39,711 bases of DNA from a virus (lineage: Duplodnaviria > Heunggongvirae > Uroviricota > Caudoviricetes), in the IMG/VR virus record IMGVR_UViG_2531839665_000019, positions 1 to 39,711 of that record. The stretch is one strand, 5' to 3'. The position numbers and the translations under genes were made by a program. Below the pieces are notes generated by a model. That model saw only the letters and a list, made by a program, of their open reading frames with translations. It was not told the origin of the DNA and did no database searches. Positions 21,582-39,711 of the stretch are shown piece after piece. Within the stretch, counting starts at the first letter, position 1. The number at the start of each line of letters is the position of its first letter.

Positions 21582-23279
21582 TTACCATCCTCCTGAACCA
21601 AAACGCCCGCCACGGTCACGCCCGGTGCTGCGTGGGGTGTGAATCTGAAATTTTGCGCTGCGCGATACCGCCAGCGTCCACAGCATGTGCAGACAGTCCG
21701 GGCCATCATCGTGGTCGGCTTTGGGGTAGTGGCGTAGCTGGTCAATCAGCGTCTGATGTGCCGGACTGATGCGGATCAGGCCGTTGGCCATATGCGGCTG
21801 AAGAGACTCAATACGCAGCGCTTTATCCTCCAGCGGGATGACCGGCAGCGCCGGAACCGGCACGCCCAGCGCCGCCGAACGCTCAACCAGCACGGTACGC
21901 AGAAACTCCTGAAACTGGACGGACTCAAACGACCAGCACAGACAGTGGTATTCCCGCTGATACTTAATCACGTCTTCGATAAGTTTGTTTGGCAGACGTC
22001 GGCGGATATCGGCTTCAACCACATCCAGAATGCCGGTAAAGCGGTTAAAGCCCCCCACGAGAATGGCCGACGGGTCGCGGTTTTTGTTTTTCTTCCCGAG
22101 ACTGGGGTCAACAGCACCATAAAACACCCATTCATCAAGACGGTTAACCCAGAACTTAATGCAGCCAGCAAACAGCGCATCTTCACCGCTGACCGGGTCG
22201 TTCTGGTATTCAGAATCAAAGGTGTCATGACCGTCACGGACACGGATTTTCATCAGTGCCAGCAGGGGACGCGCCGCCCATGACACCACCGACCCGGCGA
22301 GCATGTCGGCTTCGTTCTGTCGGTAAAGTGCCTCTGCTGCTTCCGGCTGTTTGTTGCGGATGAGTTCTTCCCACTCGTCCCACAGCTTCATATTGGCAGG
22401 CCACTGAATGACAGCCTTAAAGCGGGCCGTTTTCCACATCGGGTTATTCAGCGTGCGTGACAGTACGGAGTCGTAATGCAGGATGGTCCCGATATAAATA
22501 ATATCGGTTTTACCGCCAGCCTCGCCCAGCGGCATCACGGTTTTGGTGAGCCAGTCATGCAGCTTGTCGCGCTGCTCCGGGTTACGCACCATCTCGTCGT
22601 TCTCGATGTCGTCGAGGATGACCAGGTCAGGACGGTACGGACCGTGGCGCAGACCACGCAGTTTTTTACCACTACCGGCAACGGTCACCTTGATATTGTT
22701 GGCCGTGACGATGGTCCCCATACGCCAGACGCGCCCCTGTCCGCACACTTCCGGGAAATCGTTTTTTAAACGGGGGTTAAATTCCAGTTCAGCCTTGATG
22801 GCTTCCAGCATCGGATAAGCCTGGTCGATACTGTCCATAATGATGACCGGGTAATGTTTAATGGCCCGGATAATGGTCCACAGGGTAAACAACTGAGTCA
22901 CCAGCGTGGATTTTGCTTCACCACGGGGGGCGGCGATGGCGTCGTTCTCCGGGTCCGGGCTTGCCACAACCTGTGGCAGACGGCTGAACAGGTATTTATG
23001 CAGCTCGCTTTTTGCCGGGTTGCGGACGTAGTGCGGGAAATAGTTTTCGACAAAATAATCGTAGCCCGTCACCGGGTCGCAGACTGCCGCCCGGCGGGCC
23101 TGTGTGGCCTGCGGGTTAACATCGAACCCCAGACATTCAGCCTCAATGGTCTGGCGGAGGTTGGCGATGTACTCCTGTAAGCTTCTCTGAAACTCTTTAA
23201 TGGAAAGTTTACGTTTTGCCACGTCACACCTGCGCTGCTTCTGCCTGCGCTTTTTCGAGACGTGCGCAGGCGATATCAA
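21582..23279 (-). CDS. terminase large subunit
   Basis: 565 aa; Walker A-like PRGEAKST and Walker B-like DLVILDDIEND; listed start is TTG and overlaps the MTase gene, so the true start is uncertain. Confidence 0.85.
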   Translation of the reverse strand: MISPAHVSKKRRQKQRRCDVAKRKLSIKEFQRSLQEYIANLRQTIEAECLGFDVNPQATQARRAAVCDPVTGYDYFVENYFPHYVRNPAKSELHKYLFSRLPQVVASPDPENDAIAAPRGEAKSTLVTQLFTLWTIIRAIKHYPVIIMDSIDQAYPMLEAIKAELEFNPRLKNDFPEVCGQGRVWRMGTIVTANNIKVTVAGSGKKLRGLRHGPYRPDLVILDDIENDEMVRNPEQRDKLHDWLTKTVMPLGEAGGKTDIIYIGTILHYDSVLSRTLNNPMWKTARFKAVIQWPANMKLWDEWEELIRNKQPEAAEALYRQNEADMLAGSVVSWAARPLLALMKIRVRDGHDTFDSEYQNDPVSGEDALFAGCIKFWVNRLDEWVFYGAVDPSLGKKNKNRDPSAILVGGFNRFTGILDVVEADIRRRLPNKLIEDVIKYQREYHCLCWSFESVQFQEFLRTVLVERSAALGVPVPALPVIPLEDKALRIESLQPHMANGLIRISPAHQTLIDQLRHYPKADHDDGPDCLHMLWTLAVSRSAKFQIHTPRSTGRDRGGRFGSGGW

Positions 23280-23964
23280 AATACTGGTTAGTCATTTCAA
23301 TGCCGGTAAATCGTCCGCCACGGGCAAGAACCGGAAGCGCGGTTGTCCCGCTTCCCATAAACGGATCGAGAACGTGCGCATCCGGTGCCAGCGGTTTAAC
23401 CAGCTCGGCCATCAGCTGAACCGGCTTTGCGGTCATGTGCAGTTTTTCGGACGGGACGACACGCTGCGTAATCACACCCGGGAACGGGCCACCGTGCGGG
23501 CATTTGTCGAGTTTTCCGTTGCTGCCCCAGACCACATACTCGGCCTGATGCCGGAAATAGCCGGTGTGTGGCGCACGGGAAGCCTGCGTTTTATCCCAGA
23601 CAACCAGACCGCGCCACAGCACACCACCGGCCTGAAATGCATCGGTAAGCGCCGGTAGTTGTCGCCAGTCACTGAACACCATGAAATAACCGCCGGGATT
23701 CAGCCTGTGCAATGCATGAGATATCCACATGGAACACCAGAACGCCCAGCTGCGCTGGTCGCGGTTATCGCCGGTGAACTCGGCATACTGAGTGTGACCG
23801 ACATACTTGTCCGAAGGGGCCATGCTGCGGTCTGATTTGTGTGTGCCACCACTGCTGTAAGGCGGGTCGGTAATGACGGCATCAAAACGTTCAGATAACG
23901 CCGGCAGCACATCAAGAACATCACCGCAATACAACGTTGCGTTACCAATAATCTGTTTTTGCAT
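23224..23964 (-). CDS. DNA methyltransferase, beta-class N6-adenine/N4-cytosine (orphan, no cognate nuclease seen)
   Basis: 246 aa; motif IV DPPY near the N-terminus, HMTAKP, and C-terminal AdoMet motif DPFMGSGTT. Confidence 0.9.
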   Translation of the reverse strand: MQKQIIGNATLYCGDVLDVLPALSERFDAVITDPPYSSGGTHKSDRSMAPSDKYVGHTQYAEFTGDNRDQRSWAFWCSMWISHALHRLNPGGYFMVFSDWRQLPALTDAFQAGGVLWRGLVVWDKTQASRAPHTGYFRHQAEYVVWGSNGKLDKCPHGGPFPGVITQRVVPSEKLHMTAKPVQLMAELVKPLAPDAHVLDPFMGSGTTALPVLARGGRFTGIEMTNQYFDIACARLEKAQAEAAQV

Positions 23965-24010: not shown

Positions 24011-24511
24011 TTAACTGAAATTATCCTCAAGCTCTTTAGCGAAGCCTTCGAGCACCTCAAGGAACGCGGCATACTGTGCCGGGTGACGCTCCTTGATGAA
24101 CGCGCCGAGCCGCTGCACCACTTCCAGTGCTGTGGCGAGCCGGTCGGTTTCCGGCAGGATTTTTTTACTGCTGGCCACCGCCTTACTGAGACTGTCAGAC
24201 AGACTCGCCAGCAGTTCGACGGACTCCTGCGGCGGGATGTCCGGGTTCTGGTTCAGCCGTTCAAGCGTCGTCTGACACTTCACCACCAGACTGATAAGCA
24301 CGGTGCGGGCGACACTTTCCAGCCCGTCACCGGCGAGCGCGTGAGCGGCACGCAGCTTGTCCCAGTCGTCGCCGTTTTTCATCGCCTGCGTTTTCCAGCG
24401 CCGCGCGGTGTCGTGCGGCACGGCGTACTTCATGGCGACGATATCCAGCGGAAGCTGGTCAAAGATGTACCCGTTACGGACTTTGTCCCTGATATCCTGT
24501 GACCACGCCAT
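24011..24511 (-). CDS. Mu gp27-like protein (putative small terminase subunit, DUF1804-like)
   Basis: 166 aa ORF upstream of MTase and large terminase. Confidence 0.45.
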   Translation of the reverse strand: MAWSQDIRDKVRNGYIFDQLPLDIVAMKYAVPHDTARRWKTQAMKNGDDWDKLRAAHALAGDGLESVARTVLISLVVKCQTTLERLNQNPDIPPQESVELLASLSDSLSKAVASSKKILPETDRLATALEVVQRLGAFIKERHPAQYAAFLEVLEGFAKELEDNFS

Positions 24512-24717
24512 TAAGTGTCCTTCTGAGCCTGTTCAATCAGGCATTTAACTTCGTAGGGATTTTCAAGAACATACACGTTTTTCCCGGTATCCAGCTCAAT
24601 GATCGTGCCACCATATGCACCACACTGACGGTAAAAATGGGTGATGCGTTCAGCGACTACCATGACAGCGCTGGTGCTCCCTGAGCCTGCGCATTCTGTA
24701 AATCTGATAATGCTCAC
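24511..24717 (-). CDS. hypothetical phage protein
   Basis: 68 aa ORF between lysis genes and gp27-like. Confidence 0.4.
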   Translation of the reverse strand: MSIIRFTECAGSGSTSAVMVVAERITHFYRQCGAYGGTIIELDTGKNVYVLENPYEVKCLIEQAQKDT

Positions 24718-24737
24718 TGTGTCAGACCTTCAAAAAA

Positions 24738-24920
24738 TCAGTTCTGCGAACACTGCCGGATGCCGTCAATAATCCGGCAGACCTGTGCCGCCGCGTCAAA
24801 CAGCTGGCCCGCTCTGTTAATGTCTGTGCATCCCACCGGAAGCAACATCATCAGAAACAGGGCCAGAACACAGCGCGCGGCTTTACGTGGCGTTCTGTGG
24901 GTCCAGTGACTTCTGTTCAT
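24738..24920 (-). CDS. small membrane/lipoprotein-like protein (possible o-spanin-like)
   Basis: 60 aa; basic N-terminus, hydrophobic stretch, Cys after LLPVG (non-canonical lipobox); immediately after endolysin. Confidence 0.35.
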   Translation of the reverse strand: MNRSHWTHRTPRKAARCVLALFLMMLLPVGCTDINRAGQLFDAAAQVCRIIDGIRQCSQN

Positions 24921-24933
24921 AACCCGTCCCGCA

Positions 24934-25311
24934 TCAACGTTTTAACTGGAAATGAGGCCCGTCTTTCAGCGTTTTCCAGTCTCCGCCCCATTCGATGGCG
25001 ACACCCAGCTCTGCGGCAGCCTGTTTAAAGGCACGGGCGATTTTTTCGTATAACGGCCAGTCCCATGAAATGGTGCTACCAACGTAAGCCACGACATCAA
25101 CGGCATCGCCAGTAAGGTGACGGCTGTTCATGGTCTGGCTCTTGCCTTCAGCGACAAGTTGTTTCTGACGTTCTTTCGTGCGTAAACCTTCGGTAATACC
25201 AAAATCGACGTCTGACAATGCCAGCGCACGACGTACAACCGCCACCAGTTGTGGCTTTACGCCAGCCAGATTTTTCTCGCTACGTTGACTGAAACGGAAT
25301 TTTCCCGACAT
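24934..25311 (-). CDS. endolysin, peptidase M15 family (L-alanyl-D-glutamate peptidase type)
   Basis: SRHLTGDAVD and DWKTLKDGPHFQL motifs; start ATG 25311 overlaps upstream stop (TGAATATG). Confidence 0.8.
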   Translation of the reverse strand: MSGKFRFSQRSEKNLAGVKPQLVAVVRRALALSDVDFGITEGLRTKERQKQLVAEGKSQTMNSRHLTGDAVDVVAYVGSTISWDWPLYEKIARAFKQAAAELGVAIEWGGDWKTLKDGPHFQLKR

Positions 25312-25313
25312 AT

Positions 25314-25592
25314 TCACCTCCGCAATAACGAAAGGATTTTTGACAAATTCCCGTGCGCCCACACGATAAGCGCACAGAAAACCAGATTCAGCGCCACAAC
25401 CAGCCAGCTGGAGTGCGTGTATGTACCGGACAGCCAGCGGAACGGGATGATGATGTAACCGAGCATCAGCCAGTACGCCAGCCAGGTAATCATCGGTTTA
25501 TGCGCTGCGCCGTGGCGGCGATACATAAACAACCCCAGCACAATGGCGAGACACAGCCAGACGTTCACAATACCGGCAAGGCTACTTTCCAT
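25314..25592 (-). CDS. membrane protein, holin/antiholin-like
   Basis: 92 aa with about 3 predicted TM segments; strong SD GGAGGGGG; between holin and endolysin. Confidence 0.5.
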   Translation of the reverse strand: MESSLAGIVNVWLCLAIVLGLFMYRRHGAAHKPMITWLAYWLMLGYIIIPFRWLSGTYTHSSWLVVALNLVFCALIVWAHGNLSKILSLLRR

Positions 25593-25974
25593 TTCCGCCC
25601 CCTCCGCCGCGCAGTCTGGAAAACAGGCTGAACAGCGATGAAATTTCCTGTTGATAAAGAAAAGTCAGTATCTTGATGGATAAAGCAGAGACACCGACCG
25701 CACACAATGCATCGAGCGGCTTGTCGTTGTAGTGGGTCAGCCACTGCATCAGTGACGCAGCCACGCCAGCCCCCAGAACGCCAACCACAAACGCGACGAG
25801 CAGGTGGATAGCCATTCGCCAGACCGGGATTTCTTTCTGCTGCGTGACAACAAAAAGCGCCCCGGCAAACGCGCCCACCACAACCCCGAAATCGGTATTG
25901 GTGAGAAGGCCAAACACACTGGCACCACCGATGGTGACTGCCACAGCTCCGCCGCCTGATAAGGGTTCAGACAT
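25582..25974 (-). CDS. putative holin
   Basis: 130 aa from ATG 25974 (AGGAGA SD, 6 nt spacing); multiple hydrophobic Gly/Ala-rich TM segments; first gene of lysis cassette. Confidence 0.55.
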   Translation of the reverse strand: MSEPLSGGGAVAVTIGGASVFGLLTNTDFGVVVGAFAGALFVVTQQKEIPVWRMAIHLLVAFVVGVLGAGVAASLMQWLTHYNDKPLDALCAVGVSALSIKILTFLYQQEISSLFSLFSRLRGGGGGNGK

Positions 25975-26131
25975 GAGTTTCTCCTGTAAATCTGAGCCAC
26001 TGACGGCCCGTAAATAACACCCTGTCAAAGGCACAAAAGCCTTTTGCAGGGCGCTATCCCTTAAGGTGCCTTGTGGTCTGAGTGGACAGGGTAAACGGTC
26101 TGGTATGGTGGGTACTGCTGGGGGAGTTCAG

Positions 26132-26461: not shown

Positions 26462-26929
26462 TTAATCAAAAAGCCCCACCTGGGTGGGGCTTTTCAGCGA
26501 AGTCTGTTTTTGTCGTCGGTGTATCAGCTGCCATGCGTACCGGTCTGAAATGCCGTAACGGGGACAGAGCAGTGCCAGCGCCTGCCGGTGTGAGCATCCG
26601 TCTTTTACATGCTGCTGTAAATCAGCCATAAAACGGGTGTTACGCAGGGCACGTAACGCATGATCGCAACGGGGAATGTAAAACGGAGCACCGCCAAGAA
26701 AGCGGATCAGTTTGTTGATTTCGTCTTCGGTCAGCACGTCATGTAACAGGGCATGGACACCGCCGGTGCGTCCGGCGTGTGCGCCGGTTTTACCGCTTAA
26801 CGTCACGCCACCAAAAGAACGAATCAACCGGGTCAGGGCGGGGAAGCCAATCACGCTAATCAGTTGCTGCACGGAATCGGGCAGCAGTGCCTGCGCATCG
26901 CGAAGATCTGTTTCACTGAAGGTCTGCAT
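26462..26929 (-). CDS. mor: Mor/C-family transcriptional activator
   Basis: 155 aa; C-terminal LGGAPFYIPR...YGISDRYAWQLI matches the Mor/C pattern GG..YIPR......YG.S. Confidence 0.8.
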   Translation of the reverse strand: MQTFSETDLRDAQALLPDSVQQLISVIGFPALTRLIRSFGGVTLSGKTGAHAGRTGGVHALLHDVLTEDEINKLIRFLGGAPFYIPRCDHALRALRNTRFMADLQQHVKDGCSHRQALALLCPRYGISDRYAWQLIHRRQKQTSLKSPTQVGLFD

Positions 26930-27024: not shown

Positions 27025-27438
27025 TTATTGTTTACGTGCTGCTCTGGCTCGTTTTCTGGCGTCTTTTGTCAGCGCCACCATCACCCCGAACAGTTGATCA
27101 TCTGTCAGCCATTCGATCACATGTTGCTTATACATGTGAGATGCCAGTCCTTCCGCATATGCCCAGGAACGACCGGCATCAGCCAGCAACGCTTCAATTT
27201 TGGATAATACCGATTTTCTGCTCATTGCCACACGGGGGCGGCGACCTTTACCGGCGGGGGCTTTACGCGGAAATCCCTGTTCGTGCATGTATTCCCGGAT
27301 GATGCGCAGTTCATCGAGGTTGCAGCGTGTGGTGCTGGTTTTACCGGTCAGGCGGGCCAGCGTCTGGCGATAAAGGACATCATCCCACCCCAGATACGCC
27401 TGACCGGCTTTAATGGCTCCGATCATCTTTTTCAGCAT
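27025..27438 (-). CDS. GemA-like regulatory protein (DUF1018, Mu gp16-like)
   Basis: N-terminus IKAGQAYLGWDDVLYRQTLARLTGKTSTTRCNLDELRII resembles the GemA pattern; start taken at internal ATG 27438. Confidence 0.6.
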   Translation of the reverse strand: MLKKMIGAIKAGQAYLGWDDVLYRQTLARLTGKTSTTRCNLDELRIIREYMHEQGFPRKAPAGKGRRPRVAMSRKSVLSKIEALLADAGRSWAYAEGLASHMYKQHVIEWLTDDQLFGVMVALTKDARKRARAARKQ

Positions 27439-27688
27439 GTTTGTTATCCTCAAAACGCACGGTAAAACGTGAAACGCCAATCCCTGACAGGAACGCAGCG
27501 GCACGGTCAAGAGACAGCCACGTCTTGTAATCGCCACGGCGTTCCTGTAGAAAATAGGACACCCCGGCGCGACGATTCACAGCAAAGAGGTGATACACAC
27601 CACCGAACCGCTGCACGACGAACTCATCCACGCCACCGCTTTCAGCCTGTTGCCTGAAAGCTGCCATTCCGATTTGTTCAATCTTCAT
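27410..27688 (-). CDS. hypothetical phage protein
   Basis: ORF downstream of a double palindrome; start ambiguous (27724, 27688 or 27667), none with a good SD. Confidence 0.35.
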   Translation of the reverse strand: MKIEQIGMAAFRQQAESGGVDEFVVQRFGGVYHLFAVNRRAGVSYFLQERRGDYKTWLSLDRAAAFLSGIGVSRFTVRFEDNKHAEKDDRSH

Positions 27689-27693
27689 AATGA

Positions 27694-27738
27694 CCAAAAC
27701 ACTACTTTTGGCAGACCAAAACATATGTTTTGGTCTGC
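27694..27738. promoter_or_regulatory. tandem palindromes sharing CCAAAAC/GTTTTGG half-sites (candidate operator)
   Basis: CCAAAAC-ACTAC-TTTTGG followed by the perfect 28-bp palindrome GCAGACCAAAACATATGTTTTGGTCTGC (27711-27738); centres about 22 bp apart. Confidence 0.45.
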
Positions 27739-27768: not shown

Positions 27769-28020
27769 TTATTTATCACCATCACTGAGCGTCACTTCAT
27801 GGCAGGATGGCGTGCCATCTTTCCCGGCAGAGCAATAAATAAACTTATCTCCGTCGGTCATGGTGGCACTTCCATCATCACAATGCGTAATGGTTTTGAT
27901 GAAATTTCTCCTTACCACGCAATGCCCACTTTCCGCATCATCAGAAGCCTTGTTAGTTGTTACACAAAGCGCAATACCCGTAACAATCAGAGCGATAATA
28001 AAAATGTCAACCCATCTCAT
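27769..28020 (-). CDS. small Cys-rich exported/membrane-anchored protein
   Basis: 83 aa from ATG 28020; N-terminal hydrophobic segment WVDIFIIALIVTGIALC then four Cys in about 60 aa; low-GC region. Confidence 0.5.
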   Translation of the reverse strand: MRWVDIFIIALIVTGIALCVTTNKASDDAESGHCVVRRNFIKTITHCDDGSATMTDGDKFIYCSAGKDGTPSCHEVTLSDGDK

Positions 28021-28024
28021 CTTT

Positions 28025-28210
28025 TCACCCCGCGTAATCAGGTCCGTGTTCCCATCTGGCATCGAGTATTTCCGTTCCATCTGTCCGGCATGGGTTATCA
28101 AGTGCCATTTTTCCGCACTCCCCATACTCGACATCGACAAAATCAGCAATATCATTGTCCGTTGCGTTATCAGGAACGTCGATTTCAACCGTTACGGTGA
28201 TAGTTTTCAT
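28025..28210 (-). CDS. small highly acidic protein (candidate DNA mimic)
   Basis: 61 aa from ATG 28210 (GGAG SD); about 28 percent Asp/Glu. Confidence 0.45.
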   Translation of the reverse strand: MKTITVTVEIDVPDNATDNDIADFVDVEYGECGKMALDNPCRTDGTEILDARWEHGPDYAG

Positions 28211-28251
28211 CAGGTTGTTACTCCGTGATTCAGAAAATTTCATGCCGGGAC

Positions 28252-28665
28252 TCAGTATGTGAAATAGACAGTTGCCACACCGTTATAGTGGTCAAACGAC
28301 ACGGCGTTTACCTCATAACTGGCCGGGAGCTTCGAGCCAAGAACGTATCCGGGCCACGTTTTCCATGGAATTTCTCTGCTCTCACCATCGCCATATACCG
28401 TACATCCCAGTGAGCCTACAGCTTCAGAAGAACGCTTACCGCACGTTATGAACCCCAGATTTTGCTTACTGCCCTTAACAGAAATCGGGAGAGCACTGGC
28501 TGATGCATTAGCAGCACGCTGTGCCTGTTGATTTGCGATATTCGCAGAGTTCGCAGCAGCTGCGGTAGCAGCCGTGGTCGCAGCGGCAGATGCCACAATA
28601 ACTGCTGAGGCCTGCGCCTGTTGGGTAATTGTCAGCAATACCGCCACAAAAATCATTTTCTTCAC
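28252..28665 (-). CDS. secreted protein with signal peptide and Ala-rich linker
   Basis: GTG start at 28665 with AGGAGG SD at 6 nt; signal peptide MKKMIFVAVLLTITQQAQA; two Cys in a beta-rich C-terminal domain. Confidence 0.6.
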   Translation of the reverse strand: MKKMIFVAVLLTITQQAQASAVIVASAAATTAATAAAANSANIANQQAQRAANASASALPISVKGSKQNLGFITCGKRSSEAVGSLGCTVYGDGESREIPWKTWPGYVLGSKLPASYEVNAVSFDHYNGVATVYFTY

Positions 28666-28843
28666 CTGGTACCTCCTTTACATACCGTGATTTTTCCAGC
28701 GGTTTTGGGCTGCGCTTCTGTTTCGCCAGACACCGTAAAAACGAATAGAGGACCACTCTCTAAAACCAAGATATCTATAGCGAACAACAAGCCGATTTGA
28801 GATACGGATAAGCTGCCAGGGTTTTGCTGTCAGCAGTCTTGCT

Positions 28844-29050
28844 TTACGGTTTTTCATCGTTTTGCTCTCCTGTGTGTACTACTGGCTCTGCGCTACCAGC
28901 CCTGCGGCGCTCCTGAAGTTCAGTCAGGGACTGCCGTAAAAGCGTCCACCACTCTCTGTCTACAATCGGCCCGCGCATATCAAGCATTTTGTCAGCATCG
29001 GCAATCAGTCTGGTCAGGCTCTTATCGCTTATTCTGGTTTGCTGGTTCAC
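28844..29050 (-). CDS. hypothetical phage early protein
   Basis: 68 aa ORF in co-directional early operon. Confidence 0.4.
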   Translation of the reverse strand: MNQQTRISDKSLTRLIADADKMLDMRGPIVDREWWTLLRQSLTELQERRRAGSAEPVVHTGEQNDEKP

Positions 29051-32870: not shown

Positions 32871-33110
32871 TTATTGCCATACGACGGTGCAGCCGTCGAT
32901 ACAGGACGTTTTCACCACGCGGCGCAGGCCGCTGAATGTCTGGACGATTTCCGTTACCGGCCATACAGGACCACCCACGGGCGGGCAGGCATAAACCACA
33001 GGTAAACGGTGATGCTGTCCCGTTACACGACCGCCGGTGGTGTGAATGGCCACACGGGCACGGGAACGGACGGCGTTAATGGTCTGCTTGTCCATCGTCT
33101 TATTCTCCAT
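32871..33110 (-). CDS. small hypothetical protein (kil-position gene)
   Basis: 79 aa ORF immediately downstream of MuB-like gene; no sequence support for function. Confidence 0.35.
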   Translation of the reverse strand: MENKTMDKQTINAVRSRARVAIHTTGGRVTGQHHRLPVVYACPPVGGPVWPVTEIVQTFSGLRRVVKTSCIDGCTVVWQ

Positions 33111-34003
33111 CAGTGAATTAACATTTCTGCGAATTTATCAATGGCCTGCACACTGACCGGCGCATCGCTGATATCACAAATCCGGTACACACCACGCGCC
33201 AGTTTGAACAGGCGGCGGGCATTACCCAGCGAACGTGTATAAAGCGCCTCGCTGATTTCCGGTTCTGCTGCTTCCGGCATCAGCCCGGTGGCTATCTGGT
33301 TAAAATCTTCCTGCGCCAGCGTATCGCCCAGGTTAAGCGCCAGCGCCACACGGCTGTATAACTGGGCGAACTCACCGCGACGTCCCTTGAGGTTAATCAG
33401 AAGGCGTGGCATACCCGCCAGGACAATCCCGATACCCGCTTTGTCATGCAGACGGCGCAGAACCTCCAGTGCGCGATAGGGGAGCAGTTCAGCCTCGTCC
33501 ACCATCAGCAGGCGACCGGAATCACGCAGTTCTCGCACACATGCATCAATCAGTTCGTGGATATTGCCGCGAACTTTTACCCCCAGCTGGCGGCACAGCT
33601 CCTCAAGCAGTGTTCTGGCTGTATAGCCCGGGTCGGCTTCAATCAGGACCGCATCCCGGTTTCTGGCGGCGTATTCACGCAGAATCATTGTTTTGCCAAG
33701 ACCTGCCGCGCCATACAGTACGCAGATTTCACATTCCAGGTGAGCATAGGCCAACACCTCCAGTCCTTTGGCAGCCATACCGGTGGCAACAAATTTCGCT
33801 TTAATACGGCGGCTGTTTTCCTTTTCCCGCTCACGGGTCACAAAGGCAGAAATGCGTTCTTCAATATCAGCCATATCGCCCTGATATTTACCCTGTAAAT
33901 ACTGGTTGATAACGGCGCTGCTACGACCAATAGCACGGGCGACGTGGGTTTGCGTATAGCCGCGACGGGTCATTACGTCATTTAATTGCGTAATTAAACT
34001 CAT
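33110..34003 (-). CDS. B: transposition ATPase MuB-like (AAA+)
   Basis: 297 aa; Walker A GAAGLGKT; N-terminal HTH-like region; immediately downstream of transposase. Confidence 0.85.
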   Translation of the reverse strand: MSLITQLNDVMTRRGYTQTHVARAIGRSSAVINQYLQGKYQGDMADIEERISAFVTREREKENSRRIKAKFVATGMAAKGLEVLAYAHLECEICVLYGAAGLGKTMILREYAARNRDAVLIEADPGYTARTLLEELCRQLGVKVRGNIHELIDACVRELRDSGRLLMVDEAELLPYRALEVLRRLHDKAGIGIVLAGMPRLLINLKGRRGEFAQLYSRVALALNLGDTLAQEDFNQIATGLMPEAAEPEISEALYTRSLGNARRLFKLARGVYRICDISDAPVSVQAIDKFAEMLIH

Positions 34004-34021: not shown

Positions 34022-36064
34022 TTAACGGTTGTTTGTGCCGTTTTTCTTTAAATTGCGTTCGCGTTCAGATGCGAATAAATAAAGTTCTTCTTTTTCCTTT
34101 TTCTCCGGGCGTTCCAGTCCATATCCCAGATTAAAGTCAGGCTTCTGCGTAATGGCCGGGGTAAGCTCGCGTTTAGCCTCTTCGATTTTCTGCGTGGCCC
34201 GTGCAATGCGGCCCCTGACGCGTTTCTCCAGTTTTTGTTCGATAACTGGTTTAGCGAAGGCATCAACCTTGTTACCGTTCCAGATGGCATCGCAGATATA
34301 AGAGCCATCAGCCCGCCGGACAATGACGCTGTTTGCATCATGAATATCGTAACTGACCCTGACTTCATTCCCGTGCTCTGCGGCCAGATCATATGAGTAA
34401 TAAATATTGTTGAATAACTGAATTTCCCCGCGAAATGTTTTGCGCGTCACTTCCGGTCTGAACATTTCATGCAGTTCTTCCGGCGACAGGAAATCAATTT
34501 CAACATTCTGCTCTTTTATCAGTTTCCGGCGATACGCTGCCGGGCTGTAATATTCGCCATCCTCTTTGCGTGGTAGGCTGCTGTGTGGCCGGTTGTTATA
34601 GCGTCTGACCTCCAGCTCTATGGCTGCCATCAGTTGCTCAAAGGTAGGGATTTCATCCCTCGCCTTAACCTGCCGTTTTGTCAGCTCTTTCCCTTTGTGG
34701 GTGGCCTTAATGGCTGACTGCATAATCCGTTGCTGCATCATTACGGTTTCCTTGTCTGCATCCCTTGCGCAGTACGTCTGGAAACTCAGAGCCACGTCTT
34801 TGGGTATTCCTTTGTTTGCCCGTTCAATCACCCCGCGCCCCTGCGGGTTACCTGGTATCCCCGTGTGATGTTCCACACCCAGCCGGGGCAGAATCCCGGT
34901 AATATCGGCATCAAGCACCCGGTTTTTTTCACCGCCCCCGTTATCGGAGTAATAAATCAGCGGTATCCCGTGCTGCGCCATGCCGTAACGTAACGCATCA
35001 GCAACGGCTATCACGTTCTCCGACAGGGACAGTGACCAGCCCACAACAAAGCGTTGCCCAGCATCCATAACAAGCGTCACTTCTGGCCGGAAAATATTGC
35101 CGGTCAGGGGGTTAAACGCGGTCATTTTCATACAGTGACCATCCCCGACCCATACCGCATTAACTGGTAGCGATGTCCAGTCGCGCCGCACAAAGGGATT
35201 GAGCGAACGCCAGGCTGAACCGGTGGAGCGGAAACGCTCTTTAACAATCACCGGGACGCTGCTTAACACCCGTCTTACTGCGTGAACTGAAGGTAATGCT
35301 GCCAGCATTCCCGCATCATTCGCGTGCTTTTCATGCCACCAGGCTGAAAACTCTCGATACGCATATTCAACGGTCGGGCGCTTCCATGAGCGATAGAACA
35401 TAAAGAAATCGCTCAACCACCAGACCTGCTCCCACGGTGTTCCCTTATGATGACCGGGAGCCAGTAACGCCAGTAACTGATTGGCATCACCGCGCGCCAT
35501 CAGCCAGGCGGAATACCATTCCTGTAAACTCCCTGTACTGACGCCAGTTCGCTTACCCTGTCGGGCATTGGCGGTATTACCTGCCACAATAACACGCTCG
35601 GGCAAAGCCTCCTGGCGGATACCATCAACGATGTGTTTTATCGCCGCCGTCCTGGACATTCCTGCGTATTCACGCAGTTTATGCACTTCGGTAGCCAGCA
35701 ATATCCGCGCATCAGCGATGGCCTTTTGCTTGTCGGTCAGTGCCTGGACTTCGCGTAATGCCAGCTCCGGGCATTTGACCATCACCTCCAGTTCATCGCG
35801 GACGGTGACGTTTTTAACTGCCTTCTGCTCAACCACGGCGGGCAGTTGCGCATCTTCCAGAACCTGATGAGTCAGGCGCTTACGTAAAACTTTCTGCGCT
35901 TCAGTGGGCAGGCAGTCGATGTGATACTCGAATGCTTTGGTGCCTTCACGCTTGCGCTTCCATTCCGGGTGCGTCTCTGTGATCCGATTGAGCGTCCAGC
36001 GCACCCCCTGAACTGTACCGGGCAAACCAGGAAGACCGGCCAGCTCATTGGCTGAATAAAACAT
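34022..36064 (-). CDS. A: DDE transposase MuA-like
   Basis: 680 aa; N-terminus with LPGLPGT motif like MuA; catalytic-region motifs VWVGDGH and YYSDNGGGE; start coupled to ner stop. Confidence 0.9.
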   Translation of the reverse strand: MFYSANELAGLPGLPGTVQGVRWTLNRITETHPEWKRKREGTKAFEYHIDCLPTEAQKVLRKRLTHQVLEDAQLPAVVEQKAVKNVTVRDELEVMVKCPELALREVQALTDKQKAIADARILLATEVHKLREYAGMSRTAAIKHIVDGIRQEALPERVIVAGNTANARQGKRTGVSTGSLQEWYSAWLMARGDANQLLALLAPGHHKGTPWEQVWWLSDFFMFYRSWKRPTVEYAYREFSAWWHEKHANDAGMLAALPSVHAVRRVLSSVPVIVKERFRSTGSAWRSLNPFVRRDWTSLPVNAVWVGDGHCMKMTAFNPLTGNIFRPEVTLVMDAGQRFVVGWSLSLSENVIAVADALRYGMAQHGIPLIYYSDNGGGEKNRVLDADITGILPRLGVEHHTGIPGNPQGRGVIERANKGIPKDVALSFQTYCARDADKETVMMQQRIMQSAIKATHKGKELTKRQVKARDEIPTFEQLMAAIELEVRRYNNRPHSSLPRKEDGEYYSPAAYRRKLIKEQNVEIDFLSPEELHEMFRPEVTRKTFRGEIQLFNNIYYSYDLAAEHGNEVRVSYDIHDANSVIVRRADGSYICDAIWNGNKVDAFAKPVIEQKLEKRVRGRIARATQKIEEAKRELTPAITQKPDFNLGYGLERPEKKEKEELYLFASERERNLKKNGTNNR

Positions 36065-36300
36065 TACGCCGCCTTACTGGCATACCGGCTTGGCCAGATC
36101 TCCGCAGGTTCCACACCAATAGCATCGGCTATGATGCGTTCATATTTAGGGCATGAGCGATACAGTGCATTTTTTAAAGAGTCTTTTTTTAGACCAGCGC
36201 GTTCAGAAAGTTCACGCAATGTAAAACCTTTGGTGTGCACAGCGGCAACGATGTACTCGCGGTGCCAGTCTTTGTTCATTACTTCATTTCTAACCATCAT
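36064..36300 (-). CDS. ner: Ner-like DNA-binding regulator
   Basis: 78 aa from ATG 36300 (AAGGG SD); DWHREYIV...KNALYRSCPKYERIIADAIGVEPAEIWPSRY matches the Ner/Nlp pattern. Confidence 0.85.
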   Translation of the reverse strand: MMVRNEVMNKDWHREYIVAAVHTKGFTLRELSERAGLKKDSLKNALYRSCPKYERIIADAIGVEPAEIWPSRYASKAA

Positions 36301-36316
36301 TAGGTTACCCTTAAAA

Positions 36317-36359
36317 GTTATCCGTACGGATAACACCGCCGTGTTATCCCTTCGGATAC
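36317..36359. promoter_or_regulatory. two operator-like palindromes (GTTATCC-N4-GGATAAC) in the ner/repressor divergent control region
   Basis: Perfect palindrome GTTATCCGTACGGATAAC (36317-36334) and near-copy GTTATCCCTTCGGATAC (36343-36359), just upstream of ner. Confidence 0.5.
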
Positions 36360-36468
36360 AAGTATTGATCCATAAATAGAAAATTACAAGCTTTCTTTTC
36401 TTGATTTAGAGAAAAGAAAGTCTCTTTGTGGAGATTGGTTGAAAATCAATATGTTAGAAGGAAAGAAA

Positions 36469-37119
36469 ATGAGTAAACAAACCGCTGATGATTTTTCCTT
36501 TTCTCAGGATAGAAAAGAAAGCATTCAAGACAGAATCAAACAACTGATTGGCAGCAGGAGCCTGCGTAAAGCCACCTCAGACTGGGGATTACCGTACTCG
36601 ACCATAAATAACTACTTTGAAAAAGGCACCACACCTGGCCTAAATGTGGTCGCTACAATAGCAAAATTAGAGAATGTATCACTGGAATGGCTGGTCTATG
36701 GTGAGAACAAAAACATTCTAATGATAGAAAACACAAAGGTGGCTACAGAAGACGTTAACCGCCCCGATACAAGTATTGTTGACGAAATACTAAGACGAGC
36801 CGCTCCAGAAGATAGAGAGCGTCTTATTGATATGCTTTGTTGTATTGGTATCAAAGGAGTCCTGGAACGCTTACAACAACCCATCAGGCAAGCTACGCAG
36901 GCCGACAGCGACCAAGACGAACAGGAGAATGCCATCAGAAGCCTAAACATCAGGGAATCACTCAAAGACGTTATATGTATGGCTCTAGATGGTAATGAAG
37001 AAACCGACAAAGAGATTTTGCGACGCATCGAATCTCGTGCACGGGCTGGGTCGCCAGGTGGTCAGACCGCTGCCACGCCGGAACAAGAAACGAAGCCTGT
37101 AAGCAAAAAATCAGCATGA
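36469..37119 (+). CDS. phage repressor (CI-like HTH)
   Basis: Start taken at ATG 36469 (AGGA SD); HTH-like segment STINNYFEKGTTPGLNVVATIAKLENVSLEWLVYGE; divergent from ner/A/B as for the Mu c repressor. Confidence 0.7.
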   Translation: MSKQTADDFSFSQDRKESIQDRIKQLIGSRSLRKATSDWGLPYSTINNYFEKGTTPGLNVVATIAKLENVSLEWLVYGENKNILMIENTKVATEDVNRPDTSIVDEILRRAAPEDRERLIDMLCCIGIKGVLERLQQPIRQATQADSDQDEQENAIRSLNIRESLKDVICMALDGNEETDKEILRRIESRARAGSPGGQTAATPEQETKPVSKKSA

Positions 37120-37280
37120 ACGCCTACTGCCTGGTGGGCGCATGCTGCTAACTAATTAGCGACATCCACAACAAAACCAATACAGAAGACGGATAAGAAA
37201 GGGACAAATTAAGCAAGGTTAAAACGGGTTTTAAAATCTTTTAAAAGGCGATCGCTTTCCTGCACCACCAGATCAAAGTA

Positions 37281-37414
37281 GTCCAGAATAAAGCGTAAAA
37301 AAAGGCACTTTTGGTCATTTCTTTCAAAACGATCCAGAATCGGTGAAATCTCTCACATCCCGCACCACTCAAGGCTTGCAGGTTCGTCCAGGCTGCTCGG
37401 ACCCAGTCCAGAAT
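37281..37414. repeat. three copies of (G/A)TCCAGAAT near the prophage left end (candidate transposase-binding sites)
   Basis: GTCCAGAAT at 37281-37289, ATCCAGAAT at 37332-37340, GTCCAGAAT at 37406-37414, all in the same orientation within 135 bp. Confidence 0.4.
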
Positions 37415-37430
37415 TGATCACCACCCCACA

Positions 37431-37667
37431 AATACAGCGGTAGGTCTGGGGCTATACCCGGATTACGCAACGGCTGTTGATAAGATGGTTCGCGTGAAAG
37501 ATATCTTTATACCGATTGAGAGCAATGCCAAACGCTACGACGCGATGAATAAAGGCATTTTCAAAGACCTAACCAAACATACTGATGTGATCCTGAAAAA
37601 ATCGTATGAAGTGATGCATGGGGAATTGGGGAATGTGGATTCGATCCAGAGCTGGTCGAATGCGTAA
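37431..37667 (+). pseudogene. 3' fragment of host FGGY-family sugar kinase gene (ygcE-like), truncated by the prophage
   Basis: Open frame encodes ...NTAVGLGLYPDYATAVDKMVRVKDIFIP...SWSNA*, resembling FGGY kinase C-termini; upstream residues in the same frame are non-kinase-like; 5' boundary approximate. Confidence 0.45.
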
Positions 37668-37675
37668 GTGAGGAA

Positions 37676-37699
37676 GGCCGGGCGGGAAACTGCCCGGCC
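37676..37699 (+). other. GC-rich stem-loop downstream of the kinase stop
   Basis: GGCCGGGC-GGGAAACT-GCCCGGCC; 8-bp GC stem; no U-tract follows, so terminator function uncertain. Confidence 0.3.
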
Positions 37700-37713
37700 T
37701 GAACATACCTGAA

Positions 37714-37851
37714 TGGTTATCCCCGCTGACGCGGGGAACATAAGTTCGACAACTTAAAAAATGATAACAAGTCCGGTTTATCCCCGCTGATGCAGGGAAC
37801 ATAATAAAAACTTTAACTAGTTCGGTTTATCCCTGTTTTTACAAGGAATAT
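37714..37851 (-). CRISPR. degenerate type I-E CRISPR remnant (3 decayed repeats; spacers 32 and 20 bp)
   Basis: Repeats at 37714-37741, 37774-37802 and 37823-37851 with 2 to about 10 mismatches versus CGGTTTATCCCCGCTGGCGCGGGGAACTC. Confidence 0.6.
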
Positions 37852-38305
37852 TAACTACACTCGATGTCTTTAGAATAAAAGACAATACGAATCGCACTTT
37901 ATCAATTTTCACTTAAAGTATGAACTGGATATCTTTATTCATAAGAACTATTCATCAACAGCGTATAGAGGCGGTTATGTAAAACCACTCATTAGCCTCA
38001 AAACAAAGACAAACTTCCAGATTTATTACTTAACCAATGAATAACAAGCTTAAAAAACATACTGTTATTCTAAAGAAAAAATTAACAGGCATTAATTCAA
38101 TATTAAAAAAATAATAGATTAAAATTTCTTAACGATTTAAGAATCATACAAATAACACTTTGATTAAATTTAATTTTTTGTATCGATAATTGTGAACCTC
38201 TCTGGCATGGAGAACTATTTTGAACATGAGGTGTTACGTGGATATGTTGCTTATTACAAGTACTGCTAATATAAAAACTTGAGAAAGAGATAACGGGTTA
38301 TATGG

Positions 38306-38700
38306 TGGTTTATCCCCGCTGGCGCGGGGAACTCTAATCACGTTTTAGCGCGCCCTCGTCCGGTTTCGGTTTATCCCCGCTGGCGCGGGGAACTCAAGAC
38401 GACGTGATCCGCAAAGTCGAAGGCACGCGGTTTATCCCCGCTGGCGCGGGGAACTCTGTTTTTCTGCCGGTTTAACACGGTGCGATAACGGTTTATCCCC
38501 GCTGGCGCGGGGAACTCTGTTTCTGTCCCAACTGAACAGCGCCGATAGTCGGTTTATCCCCGCTGGCGCGGGGAACTCGAATGATCCCAAATTTGGGTTA
38601 CAGAACCAGTCGGTTTATCCCCGCTGGCGCGGGGAACTCGGACTTAAAGATCGCATCACAGTACTGGAGGGCGGTTTATCCCCGCTGGCGCGGGGAACTC
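38306..38700 (-). CRISPR. type I-E CRISPR array, 7 repeats / 6 spacers (E. coli ygcE-ygcF CRISPR2-type locus)
   Basis: 29-bp repeat CGGTTTATCCCCGCTGGCGCGGGGAACTC at 38306, 38367, 38428, 38489, 38550, 38611, 38672; all spacers exactly 32 bp; leader-distal repeat (38306) has a terminal base change. Confidence 0.95.
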
Positions 38701-38900
38701 TGTAAACATAACCTATTATTAATTAATGATTTTTTAAGCCAGTCACAATCTACCAACTTTATAGTATCACACAAACAACACATCCATTATGTTAAAGAGC
38801 ACTTAATCCATTGATTAAAAAGGTAAATATTTAAAATAACTCTATACAAACTAAAATCTACCAAACTTTACCGCAATAATTTTCACTCCAGCGAAAAATT
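38701..38900 (-). promoter_or_regulatory. CRISPR leader (AT-rich), adjacent to the leader-proximal repeat
   Basis: Minus strand begins CTGGCTTAAAAAATCATTAATTAATAATAGGTTATGTTTACA next to the repeat at 38672-38700, matching my recollection of the E. coli I-E leader end; extent approximate. Confidence 0.5.
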
Positions 38901-39039
38901 AATGCCACAGAATTTGTAGAGAATGCTAATGATTAGCCCTGGATGGGTAAAATGGAGGAGTTTTCAGAGGCGACAAACAATATAAATGAGTAGAAGTCTT
39001 TACAGGTTCCACCCATTTATAACGCTTATAAATGTTTAA

Positions 39040-39711
39040 TCAGGCAATATTTAGATATTTATGTGTTTGCATCGACAAACGCCAATTACGCGCAATGCAG
39101 GTTTCAATGCACAAACGTGTGGCATCATCCTTTTGGCTAATCGGCTGCAGTGCAATGACTCGCGGTTTATCATCGGTCAGCGTTGCCAGTAGTTCATCCA
39201 GTGCTTCAATATCACGTACGCGCCCCACTGGATGCTTGATTTCGTTGGCTCGCTCCAGTGCCTGTGACAACACGTCATAGCCGCCGCGCATGTTCAGCTT
39301 TGGCGATACGGTAACCCAGGTATTCGGTGTGCAGCGTACTTCATGAGTTCCACTGGTTTCGATCTGGCAGCTAAAACCGTTCTTTTCGAGCAGGTCAGTC
39401 AGTGGCAGCAAATCATGAATGCAAGGCTCACCACCCGTAATCACCACATGCCGCGCGGTATATCCCTGCCGACCAATGACAGCCAGCAAATCTTCACTGC
39501 TCGCCGCCCCCCACTTATCACTCTCTTTGGTCTTCGCCAGAATGCTGAAAAGGGAGACTTCCCGATCCTCAAGCTTTTCCCAGGTGTGTTTGGTGTCGCA
39601 CCAGGCACAGCCAACCGGGCATCCCTGTAAACGAATAAAAATGGCGGGGACGCCGGTAAAGTAACCCTCACCTTGCAGGGTCTGGAACATCTCGTTAATC
39701 GGGTACTGCAT
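39040..39711 (-). CDS. queE: 7-carboxy-7-deazaguanine synthase (radical SAM)
   Basis: 223 aa; N-terminus MQYPINEMFQTLQGEGYFTGVPAIFIRLQGCPVGCAWCDTKHTW with Cx3Cx2C-type cluster motif; recognised as E. coli QueE/YgcF. Confidence 0.95.
   Translation of the reverse strand: MQYPINEMFQTLQGEGYFTGVPAIFIRLQGCPVGCAWCDTKHTWEKLEDREVSLFSILAKTKESDKWGAASSEDLLAVIGRQGYTARHVVITGGEPCIHDLLPLTDLLEKNGFSCQIETSGTHEVRCTPNTWVTVSPKLNMRGGYDVLSQALERANEIKHPVGRVRDIEALDELLATLTDDKPRVIALQPISQKDDATRLCIETCIARNWRLSMQTHKYLNIA

Follow-up and report, generated by a model that had tools for sequence, protein, structure and literature searches.

What function do two small exported proteins serve when their genes lie in the early operon of a Mu-like transposable prophage of E. 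coli? The question is raised by positions 27769-28665 of a stretch of viral DNA of 39,711 nucleotides (nt) (IMG/VR record IMGVR_UViG_2531839665_000019; the whole stretch is called the window below), which hold three minus-strand genes, gA, gB and gC. The reading favoured here, at a rough probability of 0.4, is that the products of gA and gC act in superinfection exclusion or as a block at the envelope during lytic growth. Judged by their sequences, both proteins fit a known kind, i.e. small, early, envelope-targeted accessory proteins of phages, and they stand outside the known exclusion families. The families to which they belong are already catalogued (PHROGs 8805 and 8391, 'hypothetical protein' entries), with neither a function nor literature attached to them. 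The three genes are as follows.

28252-28665, minus strand: gA, 137 amino acids (aa), phrog_8805; starting with GTG at 28665 and stopping at 28252-28254.
28025-28210, minus strand: gB, 61 aa, phrog_8773; isoelectric point 4.05; GGAG 10 nt upstream of the ATG.
27769-28020, minus strand: gC, 83 aa, phrog_8391; ATG at 28020, four bases past the gB stop.

An earlier note on this DNA had described two adjacent genes for exported proteins. The export signals of both were upheld by a rule-based script combined with conservation across homologues, on which all export calls given here are based; the adjacency was not, since gB, encoding an acidic 61-aa protein, intervenes. Among the 22 genes of the early operon (from ner to the lysis cassette) only gA and gC encode an N-terminal hydrophobic export signal, and the crude signal peptide rule picked out 7 of the 942 start/open reading frame (ORF) combinations in the window, gA being one of the seven. 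A 139-aa ORF at 27769-28188 was rejected as the left gene of the region: it is only mechanical, and the real start of gC is the ATG at 28020, as indicated by phrog_8391 and by PGAP in relatives.

The gA product, which matches phrog_8805 with an E value of 7.5e-81, has the layout that had been attributed to one of the two proteins, namely a signal peptide, an Ala-rich linker and a C-terminal domain with two Cys residues.

28672-28678, minus strand: Shine-Dalgarno sequence AAGGAGG of gA, read from the sequence.
28609-28665, minus strand: signal peptide, residues 1-19, MKKMIFVAVLLTITQQAQA, rule-based, with predicted cleavage between AQA and S.
28483-28608, minus strand: linker rich in Ala, Thr, Asn and Gln, residues 20-61; predicted local distance difference test score (pLDDT) 37-46 in the full-length model.
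28255-28482, minus strand: C-terminal domain, residues 62-137, with Cys75 and Cys88; six strands and one helix predicted.

The n-region MKK is followed by an 11-residue hydrophobic core, MIFVAVLLTIT, and then by QQAQA before S (17-19/20), so that by rule the protein shows the marks of a Sec substrate of signal peptidase I: a positive n-region, a core of 7-15 residues and small residues at −3/−1. All gA homologues down to 44% identity keep this layout, from the positive n-region through the hydrophobic core to the small residues at the cleavage site, with divergent sequences. The lipobox of the PROSITE type, [LVI][ASTVI][GAS]C, is absent from both gA and gC. The signal peptide and lipoprotein check proposed in the earlier note, done here by rules, was thus positive for the signal peptide of gA and negative for a canonical lipobox in either protein.

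The linker is of low complexity, with indels and variable length among homologues. The full-length gA model was poor (pLDDT 52), whereas the domain alone, modelled by AlphaFold2 with a more diverse alignment, reached a pLDDT of 90.2 and a predicted template modelling score of 0.77. The structure prediction that had been suggested as a check therefore gave a confident fold of the C-terminal domain and no counterpart among solved folds: nothing significant was found for the domain model by Foldseek against the PDB, a fold search of BFVD returned one family member and nothing else, and neither the gA domain nor gC gave a match below E 0.5 in sequence and profile searches of the PDB. The ratio of nonsynonymous to synonymous substitution rates (dN/dS) of gA was 0.09-0.44. 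In comparison with the homologue of phage Av-05 the domain gave dN/dS values of 0.162/0.629, and residues 1-61 gave 0.178/0.192 (dN close to dS). Going by these ratios, gA is under purifying selection, and the domain is more constrained than the linker. The C-terminal YFTY of gA was considered as an outer-membrane beta-signal or a DegS-activating tail and rejected, as homologues run past it (…YFTYTEKK, …YFEYR, …YFEYW) and the model puts it in an internal strand of the sheet.

The homologues of gA form 60 clusters, all hypothetical. An exhaustive profile search of 1.8 billion cluster representatives gave 16 matches to the family, 7 of them below 1e-10; these seven, when retrieved, proved to have 109-134 aa and, in each case, a Sec-type signal of a different sequence. 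Cys75 and Cys88 are invariant in 28 homologues and in 14 more diverse ones, and the conserved motifs are GF(I/V)TCGK, SLGC, (I/V)P(W/Y), WPGY.LG, FD.YN and ATVYF.Y. Canonical lipoboxes, LSAC or LSSC, occur in some homologues located on P1/D6-like elements (P0054, LSSC; P0066, LSAC). The lipobox subgroup consists of P0054, P0066 and P0076 (L004:6001-6405), in which a cleavage site between HA and S is present too, and its close relative P0053 has no such Cys. Since P0053 does not have the lipobox Cys of its close relatives, the family seems, on the aligned sequences, to alternate between soluble and lipid-anchored forms. A beta-branched hydrophobic run (AVIVA, VVIA, VVVA, VVIT, AIIA) at the mature N-terminus, just after the predicted cleavage, is kept in divergent homologues (P0067-P0074, L007:3860-4213, window 28594-28608) and could be a strand-addition or tethering motif.

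The second exported protein had been described as a hydrophobic N-terminal anchor followed by a four-Cys domain, and this is an accurate description of gC.

27955-28005, minus strand: hydrophobic anchor, residues 6-22, IFIIALIVTGIALCVTT, KD17 2.76.
27802-27921, minus strand: four-Cys periplasmic domain (Cys34, Cys47, Cys63 and Cys73; alignment A5); homologues have cleavable signals.

The N-terminus reads MRWVD-IFIIALIVTGIALCVTT-NKASDD, with a hydrophobic segment of 17-19 residues within residues 4-22, the KD17 value of 2.76 belonging to residues 4-20. With R2 on its N-side and a net negative flank on its C-side the anchor favours the N-in/C-out orientation, and gC has by rule the features of a type II signal anchor: one hydrophobic segment, charge on the N-side and no site for signal peptidase I. 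Neither an AXA site nor a canonical lipobox was found in gC by the rule-based scan, and the signal peptide rule did not select it; cleavage may still occur between VTT and N. The anchor ends with IALC, in which Leu at −1 makes a non-canonical lipobox. Since the anchor-terminal Cys is conserved in the anchor-type relatives, an atypical lipobox is possible in gC, as far as the alignment tells.

The gC family comprised 43 clusters in a profile search, all from Enterobacteriaceae, all hypothetical and mostly 69-73 aa long. Most members, those of Klebsiella phages included, have a cleavable signal, cut between IIPAAMA and AD.PHC, followed by the four-Cys domain; since the homologues join cleavable signals to the same domain, the domain of gC should be periplasmic. 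The subgroup from E. coli, Salmonella and Citrobacter, to which the gC of the window belongs, has an anchor that looks uncleaved and always terminates with Cys. In alignment A5, of nine sequences with identities down to 33%, all four Cys residues are invariant; a more distant cluster, P0115, has only three. With a dN/dS of 0.35-0.40 gC is, by this measure, under purifying selection. The possibility that gA and gC share a domain was rejected (hhalign probability 0.9%).

The intervening gene, gB, encodes an acidic protein with two Cys residues and neither a hydrophobic segment nor an export signal. It is a cytoplasmic protein, unrelated to gA and gC. PHROG 8773 and PGAP (a coding sequence of 186 nt in relatives) concur on its start, MKTITV. 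None of the three genes matched a named family in Pfam, PHROGs, NCBIfam or PADLOC, the only hits being the uncharacterised PHROGs 8805, 8773 and 8391, and no mention of the PHROG identifiers was found in the literature.

When are these proteins made? The window carries the Mu-like prophage on its minus strand, and the placing of the three genes in an early region by the earlier note was borne out by matches to the repressor, Ner-like, MuA, MuB, DUF3164, DUF2786, GemA and Mor proteins.

36439-37119, plus strand: CI-type repressor.
36064-36336: Ner-like winged helix-turn-helix protein, right end of the prophage.
34022-36064: MuA transposase, right end of the prophage.
33110-34003: MuB-like AAA+ protein, right end of the prophage.
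27025-27537, minus strand: GemA (mechanical ORF).
26462-26929: Mor.

Leftward of the MuB-like gene lie the genes of DUF3164, DUF7448 and DUF2786/DUF7168 proteins and then those of GemA and Mor; leftward of Mor follow the lysis cassette, DUF1804, a DNA methylase, the Mu portal and the tail genes. The slot of gA, gB and gC is in the early operon, between the DUF2786/DUF7168 gene and gemA/mor, and since it is just upstream of gemA/mor it is the counterpart of the dispensable early region of Mu. The likeness to the semi-essential early region of Mu concerns the place (c/ner/A/B ... gemA-mor) and the dispensable, variable content; the difference is that gA, gB and gC match no named Mu early family.

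The genes in the slot are tightly packed: gB and gC are 4 nt apart, and the AAGGAGG that stands six bases before the GTG of gA overlaps the TAA stop (28678-28680) of the 59-aa ORF upstream, which thus ends inside the Shine-Dalgarno sequence. A crude consensus scan found no minus-strand sigma-70 promoter upstream of gA, gB or gC, the sole minus-strand match being inside the 3' end of gC, nor a sigma-70 match on the gA strand in two other gA contexts, and no intrinsic terminator with a T-run was found after any of the three genes. A conserved promoter travelling with gA was rejected as well, none being seen and the upstream DNA not being conserved between contexts. Because the genes abut or overlap and have no promoter of their own, they are taken to be co-transcribed with the early genes. 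In Mu the equivalent region is served by the early promoter, which the repressor controls; by analogy, gA, gB and gC would be expressed after infection or induction and not in the resting lysogen.

This bears on the first alternative, according to which gA and/or gC are lysogenic-conversion or host-fitness factors supplied by the resting prophage (stress tolerance, biofilm, serum resistance or adhesion), with lambda Bor and Lom and the small periplasmic proteins of the BhsA/YhcN type as models. As in typical morons, the genes are polymorphic in presence and absence among related prophages and their GC content is below that of the phage core, as the earlier note had stated (0.480 in 27769-28665 vs 0.556 in the late region, 1-26000). 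A moron's own promoter and terminator were not detected by the crude scan, however, the genes being packed into the early operon. The profile-profile (hhalign) probability of a relation to DUF1471 (YhcN/BhsA) was 0.4%, with no Pfam match, and gA differs from that family also by an extra disulfide-bridged beta-hairpin and by motifs of its own (GF[IV]TCGK, FDxYN, ATVYFxY). Moreover, both families are also found in strictly lytic phages, where no lysogen exists that could profit. A host-fitness role is on this evidence unlikely.

Such lytic carriers belong to a wide distribution of gA. Sixty-nine of 5426 complete E. coli genomes carry gA, at 47 chromosomal and 24 plasmid places, the plasmid records with gA, among those listed, being of 85-102 kb. 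The gA protein of the window is 100% identical to E. coli entries, and related E. coli prophages show about 94% identity; no match to an isolated phage past short mosaic joints was found for the prophage by megablast against the phage collection. Outside Mu-like prophages gA occurs in P1/D6-like context and in a Cronobacter element, in the lytic Vequintavirinae phage Av-05 (80% nucleotide identity) and, adjoining terminase genes, in the 45-kb phages KW1E_UTAR, KLB16 and KLB22. The context is always that of a phage (Mu-like, P1/D6-like plasmids, beside terminase), the neighbours change in each of them, and the DNA upstream of gA is not conserved. Relatives of gC were found in lytic Klebsiella Webervirus phages and in jumbo phage YC1.

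In complete E. coli genomes gC and gB are rare (about 7 and about 6 of 5426, respectively), and just 4 contain the gB-gC region in full. Collinear Mu-like prophages carry in the slot gA alone (L009, L010), gA and gC (L011), gA and gB (L012) or all three genes (the window, L002). The alignment presents gC as a clean indel exactly past the gB stop. The loci without gB (L009, L010 and L011) retain stubs of it in the alignment, i.e. its first ~50 nt and last few codons, and the endpoints of the deletion, in window coordinates, fall on a direct repeat, CCTGAT(A/T)ACGC.

28164-28174, minus strand: direct repeat, upstream copy, CCTGATAACGC (alignment A6 and sequence).
28032-28042, minus strand: direct repeat, downstream copy, CCTGATTACGC (alignment A6 and sequence).

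Because its endpoints match this repeat, the loss of gB is ascribed to a microhomology deletion. As the genes occur in the combinations A, A+B, A+C and A+B+C, they are independent cassettes and not one system: gA, gB and gC are phage accessory genes shuffled independently, and the earlier word 'cluster' does not hold in a functional sense, the three genes assorting independently among close prophages. The window and four complete E. coli genomes, in which they are contiguous, tightly spaced and on a common strand, speak for the alternative that they form one three-component system, e.g. an exported effector with a partner or immunity protein. This alternative is highly improbable in view of those combinations; in addition, gA has moved into P1/D6-like plasmids and lytic phages unaccompanied, with differing neighbours, Klebsiella phages have members of the gC family but neither gA nor gB, and the domains of gA and gC are unrelated.

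Another alternative assigns gA and gC to the management of phage exit or of the envelope, as a periplasmic regulator of holin/endolysin timing (antiholin-like, as T4 RI) or as an inhibitor acting on a periplasmic hydrolase or protease of the host. The features that matter here lie to the left of Mor.

~24511-26034: lysis cassette.
25314-25592 and 25582-26034: two holins.
24934-25362: M15 peptidase.
24738-24920, minus strand: 60-aa ORF, candidate o-spanin, with a lipobox-like LPVGC after a hydrophobic stretch.

A periplasmic location and early expression are compatible with such a role, the lysis cassette is complex (two holins and an M15 peptidase), and the layout of gA, a hydrophobic N-terminus, a helical low-complexity stalk and a C-terminal head, loosely recalls i-spanins. 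But the genes are about 1.7 kb upstream of the cassette, with gemA and mor between, and the cassette already has its own lipoprotein candidate in the 60-aa ORF. The gC anchor is strongly hydrophobic, unlike a signal-anchor-release domain; gA is found elsewhere beside early or accessory genes or terminase and never beside lysis genes; and gC is missing from most otherwise similar prophages. This explanation is considered unlikely. As for a spanin or lysis role proper, it was rejected for gA and gC on position: unlike Rz/Rz1, they are outside the lysis cassette, upstream of gemA/mor and not in the setting of a spanin pair.

Exclusion or an envelope block during lytic growth is the preferred reading, and the superinfection exclusion or receptor masking put forward in the earlier note is plausible. 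Since gA and gC have no promoter of their own, sit on a repressor-controlled early transcript and belong to families present in lytic phages, they are expected to act in the envelope of the infected or induced cell. Since the operon is early and some carriers are strictly lytic, any exclusion would operate in lytic growth and not as a service of the resting prophage to its lysogen. The signal of gA would be cleaved after Sec export and a mature protein of ~118 aa released to the periplasm, with a flexible linker and a compact 76-aa domain whose two invariant Cys residues are expected to be linked by DsbA-type oxidation. The gC protein would be inserted N-in/C-out, exposing its four-Cys domain of ~50 aa on the periplasmic face of the inner membrane; four Cys are enough for two disulfides, and the relatives presumably secrete the same domain as a soluble peptide. 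The likeliest mode of action is that each protein binds a component of the host envelope or, alternatively, the apparatus by which an incoming phage penetrates. Such binding would block adsorption or DNA entry of later phages, and progeny would not be wasted on cell debris.

Two groups of known proteins are the nearest models. T5 Llp and the Cor proteins of T1, phi80 and N15 are outer-membrane lipoproteins blocking the FhuA receptor. Like gA and gC they are small, Cys-containing, envelope-targeted phage proteins, made early, of lytic and temperate phages; mature Llp (~60 aa) is near the gC ectodomain in size, and a canonical lipobox is present in some gA homologues. They differ in that there is no sequence similarity, gA has no fold match and the gA and gC of the window have no canonical lipobox. 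The early T4 proteins Sp (Spackle, periplasmic) and Imm (inner membrane) would act on incoming DNA or the penetration machinery. They resemble, respectively, gA as a soluble periplasmic protein with a cleaved signal and gC as a small inner-membrane protein (83 aa). However, the sequences are unrelated, the membrane segment of gC is a single one, the two genes assort independently of each other, and the gA domain is beta-rich with one helix, no Sp chain being among its fold matches.

Among early envelope proteins of lytic coliphages, those whose roles are known serve for the most part in exclusion (T5 Llp, PMC9586334; Cor, Imm and Sp, PMC11436027), which argues for the same role of gA and gC, as do the gA homologues on P1/D6-like elements that bear a lipobox in the manner of the outer-membrane lipoproteins Llp and Cor. 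Several results weigh on the other side. Neither gA nor gC has sequence similarity to an exclusion family or a defence model in PHROGs, Pfam, NCBIfam and PADLOC, and the gA domain model has no fold similarity to a solved member of the exclusion families (Llp, Cor, Sp, Imm, SieA/B, Sim). The crude scan leaves room for a weak or non-sigma-70 promoter and hence for expression in the lysogen. Finally, most related prophages lack gC, and most lack gB, at the low counts given above against 69 for gA; both genes are therefore dispensable.

A fourth alternative, counter-defence, has the exported proteins neutralize an immunity function of the host or of a prophage that is located in the envelope, for instance abortive-infection sensors at the membrane or gatekeepers of DNA entry in the periplasm. 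Anti-defence genes are often located in early accessory slots of transposable and other phages. Periplasmic effectors that block DNA entry do exist (the HXS system, PMC13128918). On the other hand, a protein made only after entry cannot rescue the entry of its own genome, and since an early protein appears only after that genome has entered, counter-defence against entry blocks is disfavoured. No sequence link of gA or gC to a known anti-defence protein was found, and their sequence motifs had no match in the supplements of the accessory-gene screen (PMC12373910). Counter-defence is therefore held to be improbable.

The exclusion reading can be extended, tentatively and with considerable doubt, to the whole gA family as a new periplasmic fold and a portable early exclusion factor used by very different enterobacterial phage types (Mu-like prophages, P1/D6-like plasmids, rV5-like lytic phages and 45-kb lytic phages), aimed at a conserved component of the host envelope or at the penetration machinery of the incoming phage. 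The hydrophobic V-V-I motif conserved at the mature N-terminus and the flexible linker could then be a tether or an element for beta-strand addition, and gC, with ~50 aa and four Cys, would add a second mini-protein to this class, independent of the first.

At present gA and gC are a delimited pair of exported phage proteins, useful mainly as candidates for functional screens. If gA or gC blocks entry, new, very small and easily transferable exclusion modules would be added to the short list known for coliphages. Their envelope target would then be relevant to phages as unlike as Mu-like, P1-like and rV5-like ones, with a bearing on the design of phage-therapy cocktails and on the prediction of host range from prophage content.

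Two further elements adjoin the three genes.

28678-28857, minus strand: 59-aa ORF, extremely basic and rich in Arg and Trp, directly upstream of gA; annotated by PGAP as hypothetical in relatives.
27711-27738: perfect palindrome with a 12-bp stem, GCAGACCAAAACATATGTTTTGGTCTGC, just downstream of gC.

The 59-aa ORF, a candidate gene, is probably translationally coupled to gA. Its Shine-Dalgarno sequence and start are spanned by 34 bp (28839-28872) that are 100% identical to Stx-converting phages (933W, VT2-Sakai, Min27 and others); a longer stretch matches phages D6, phiV10 and HEMP4 at ~90%. The 34 bp look like a mosaic recombination joint common to early-region genes of lambdoid phages.

The palindrome delimits the variable slot on the right. 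Beyond it by 13 nt, TGTTTTGGTC occurs in its third exact copy, so that the element at 27692-27738 holds all three copies present in the window. It is kept in five related loci and its RNA fold has −27.8 kcal/mol (z −4.9), and no T-run follows. The palindrome may bind a protein or function as an RNA element ahead of gemA and of a 92-aa gene that precedes gemA. The latter gene (27410-27724, minus strand) is 104 aa long as a mechanical ORF and 92 aa long according to PGAP in relatives, with the start MKIEQIG at 27688. The mechanical GemA ORF (170 aa) likewise starts too far upstream, PGAP giving ~132 aa in relatives, and with the PGAP starts the two genes overlap by ~29 nt.

Left of the lysis cassette one more enzyme gene was noted.

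23224-23964, minus strand: N6/N4 DNA methylase gene, with the DUF1804 (terminase-small-like) gene on one side and the presumed large terminase on the other.

The presumed large terminase itself (21582-23279) has no Pfam match. At the right end of the window, past the repressor gene, the GC content falls to 0.44 (37200-39711) and a radical-SAM protein is encoded at 39040-39711; positions 37200-39711 are probably host DNA flanking the right end of the prophage, which is placed approximately, near 37.2 kb.

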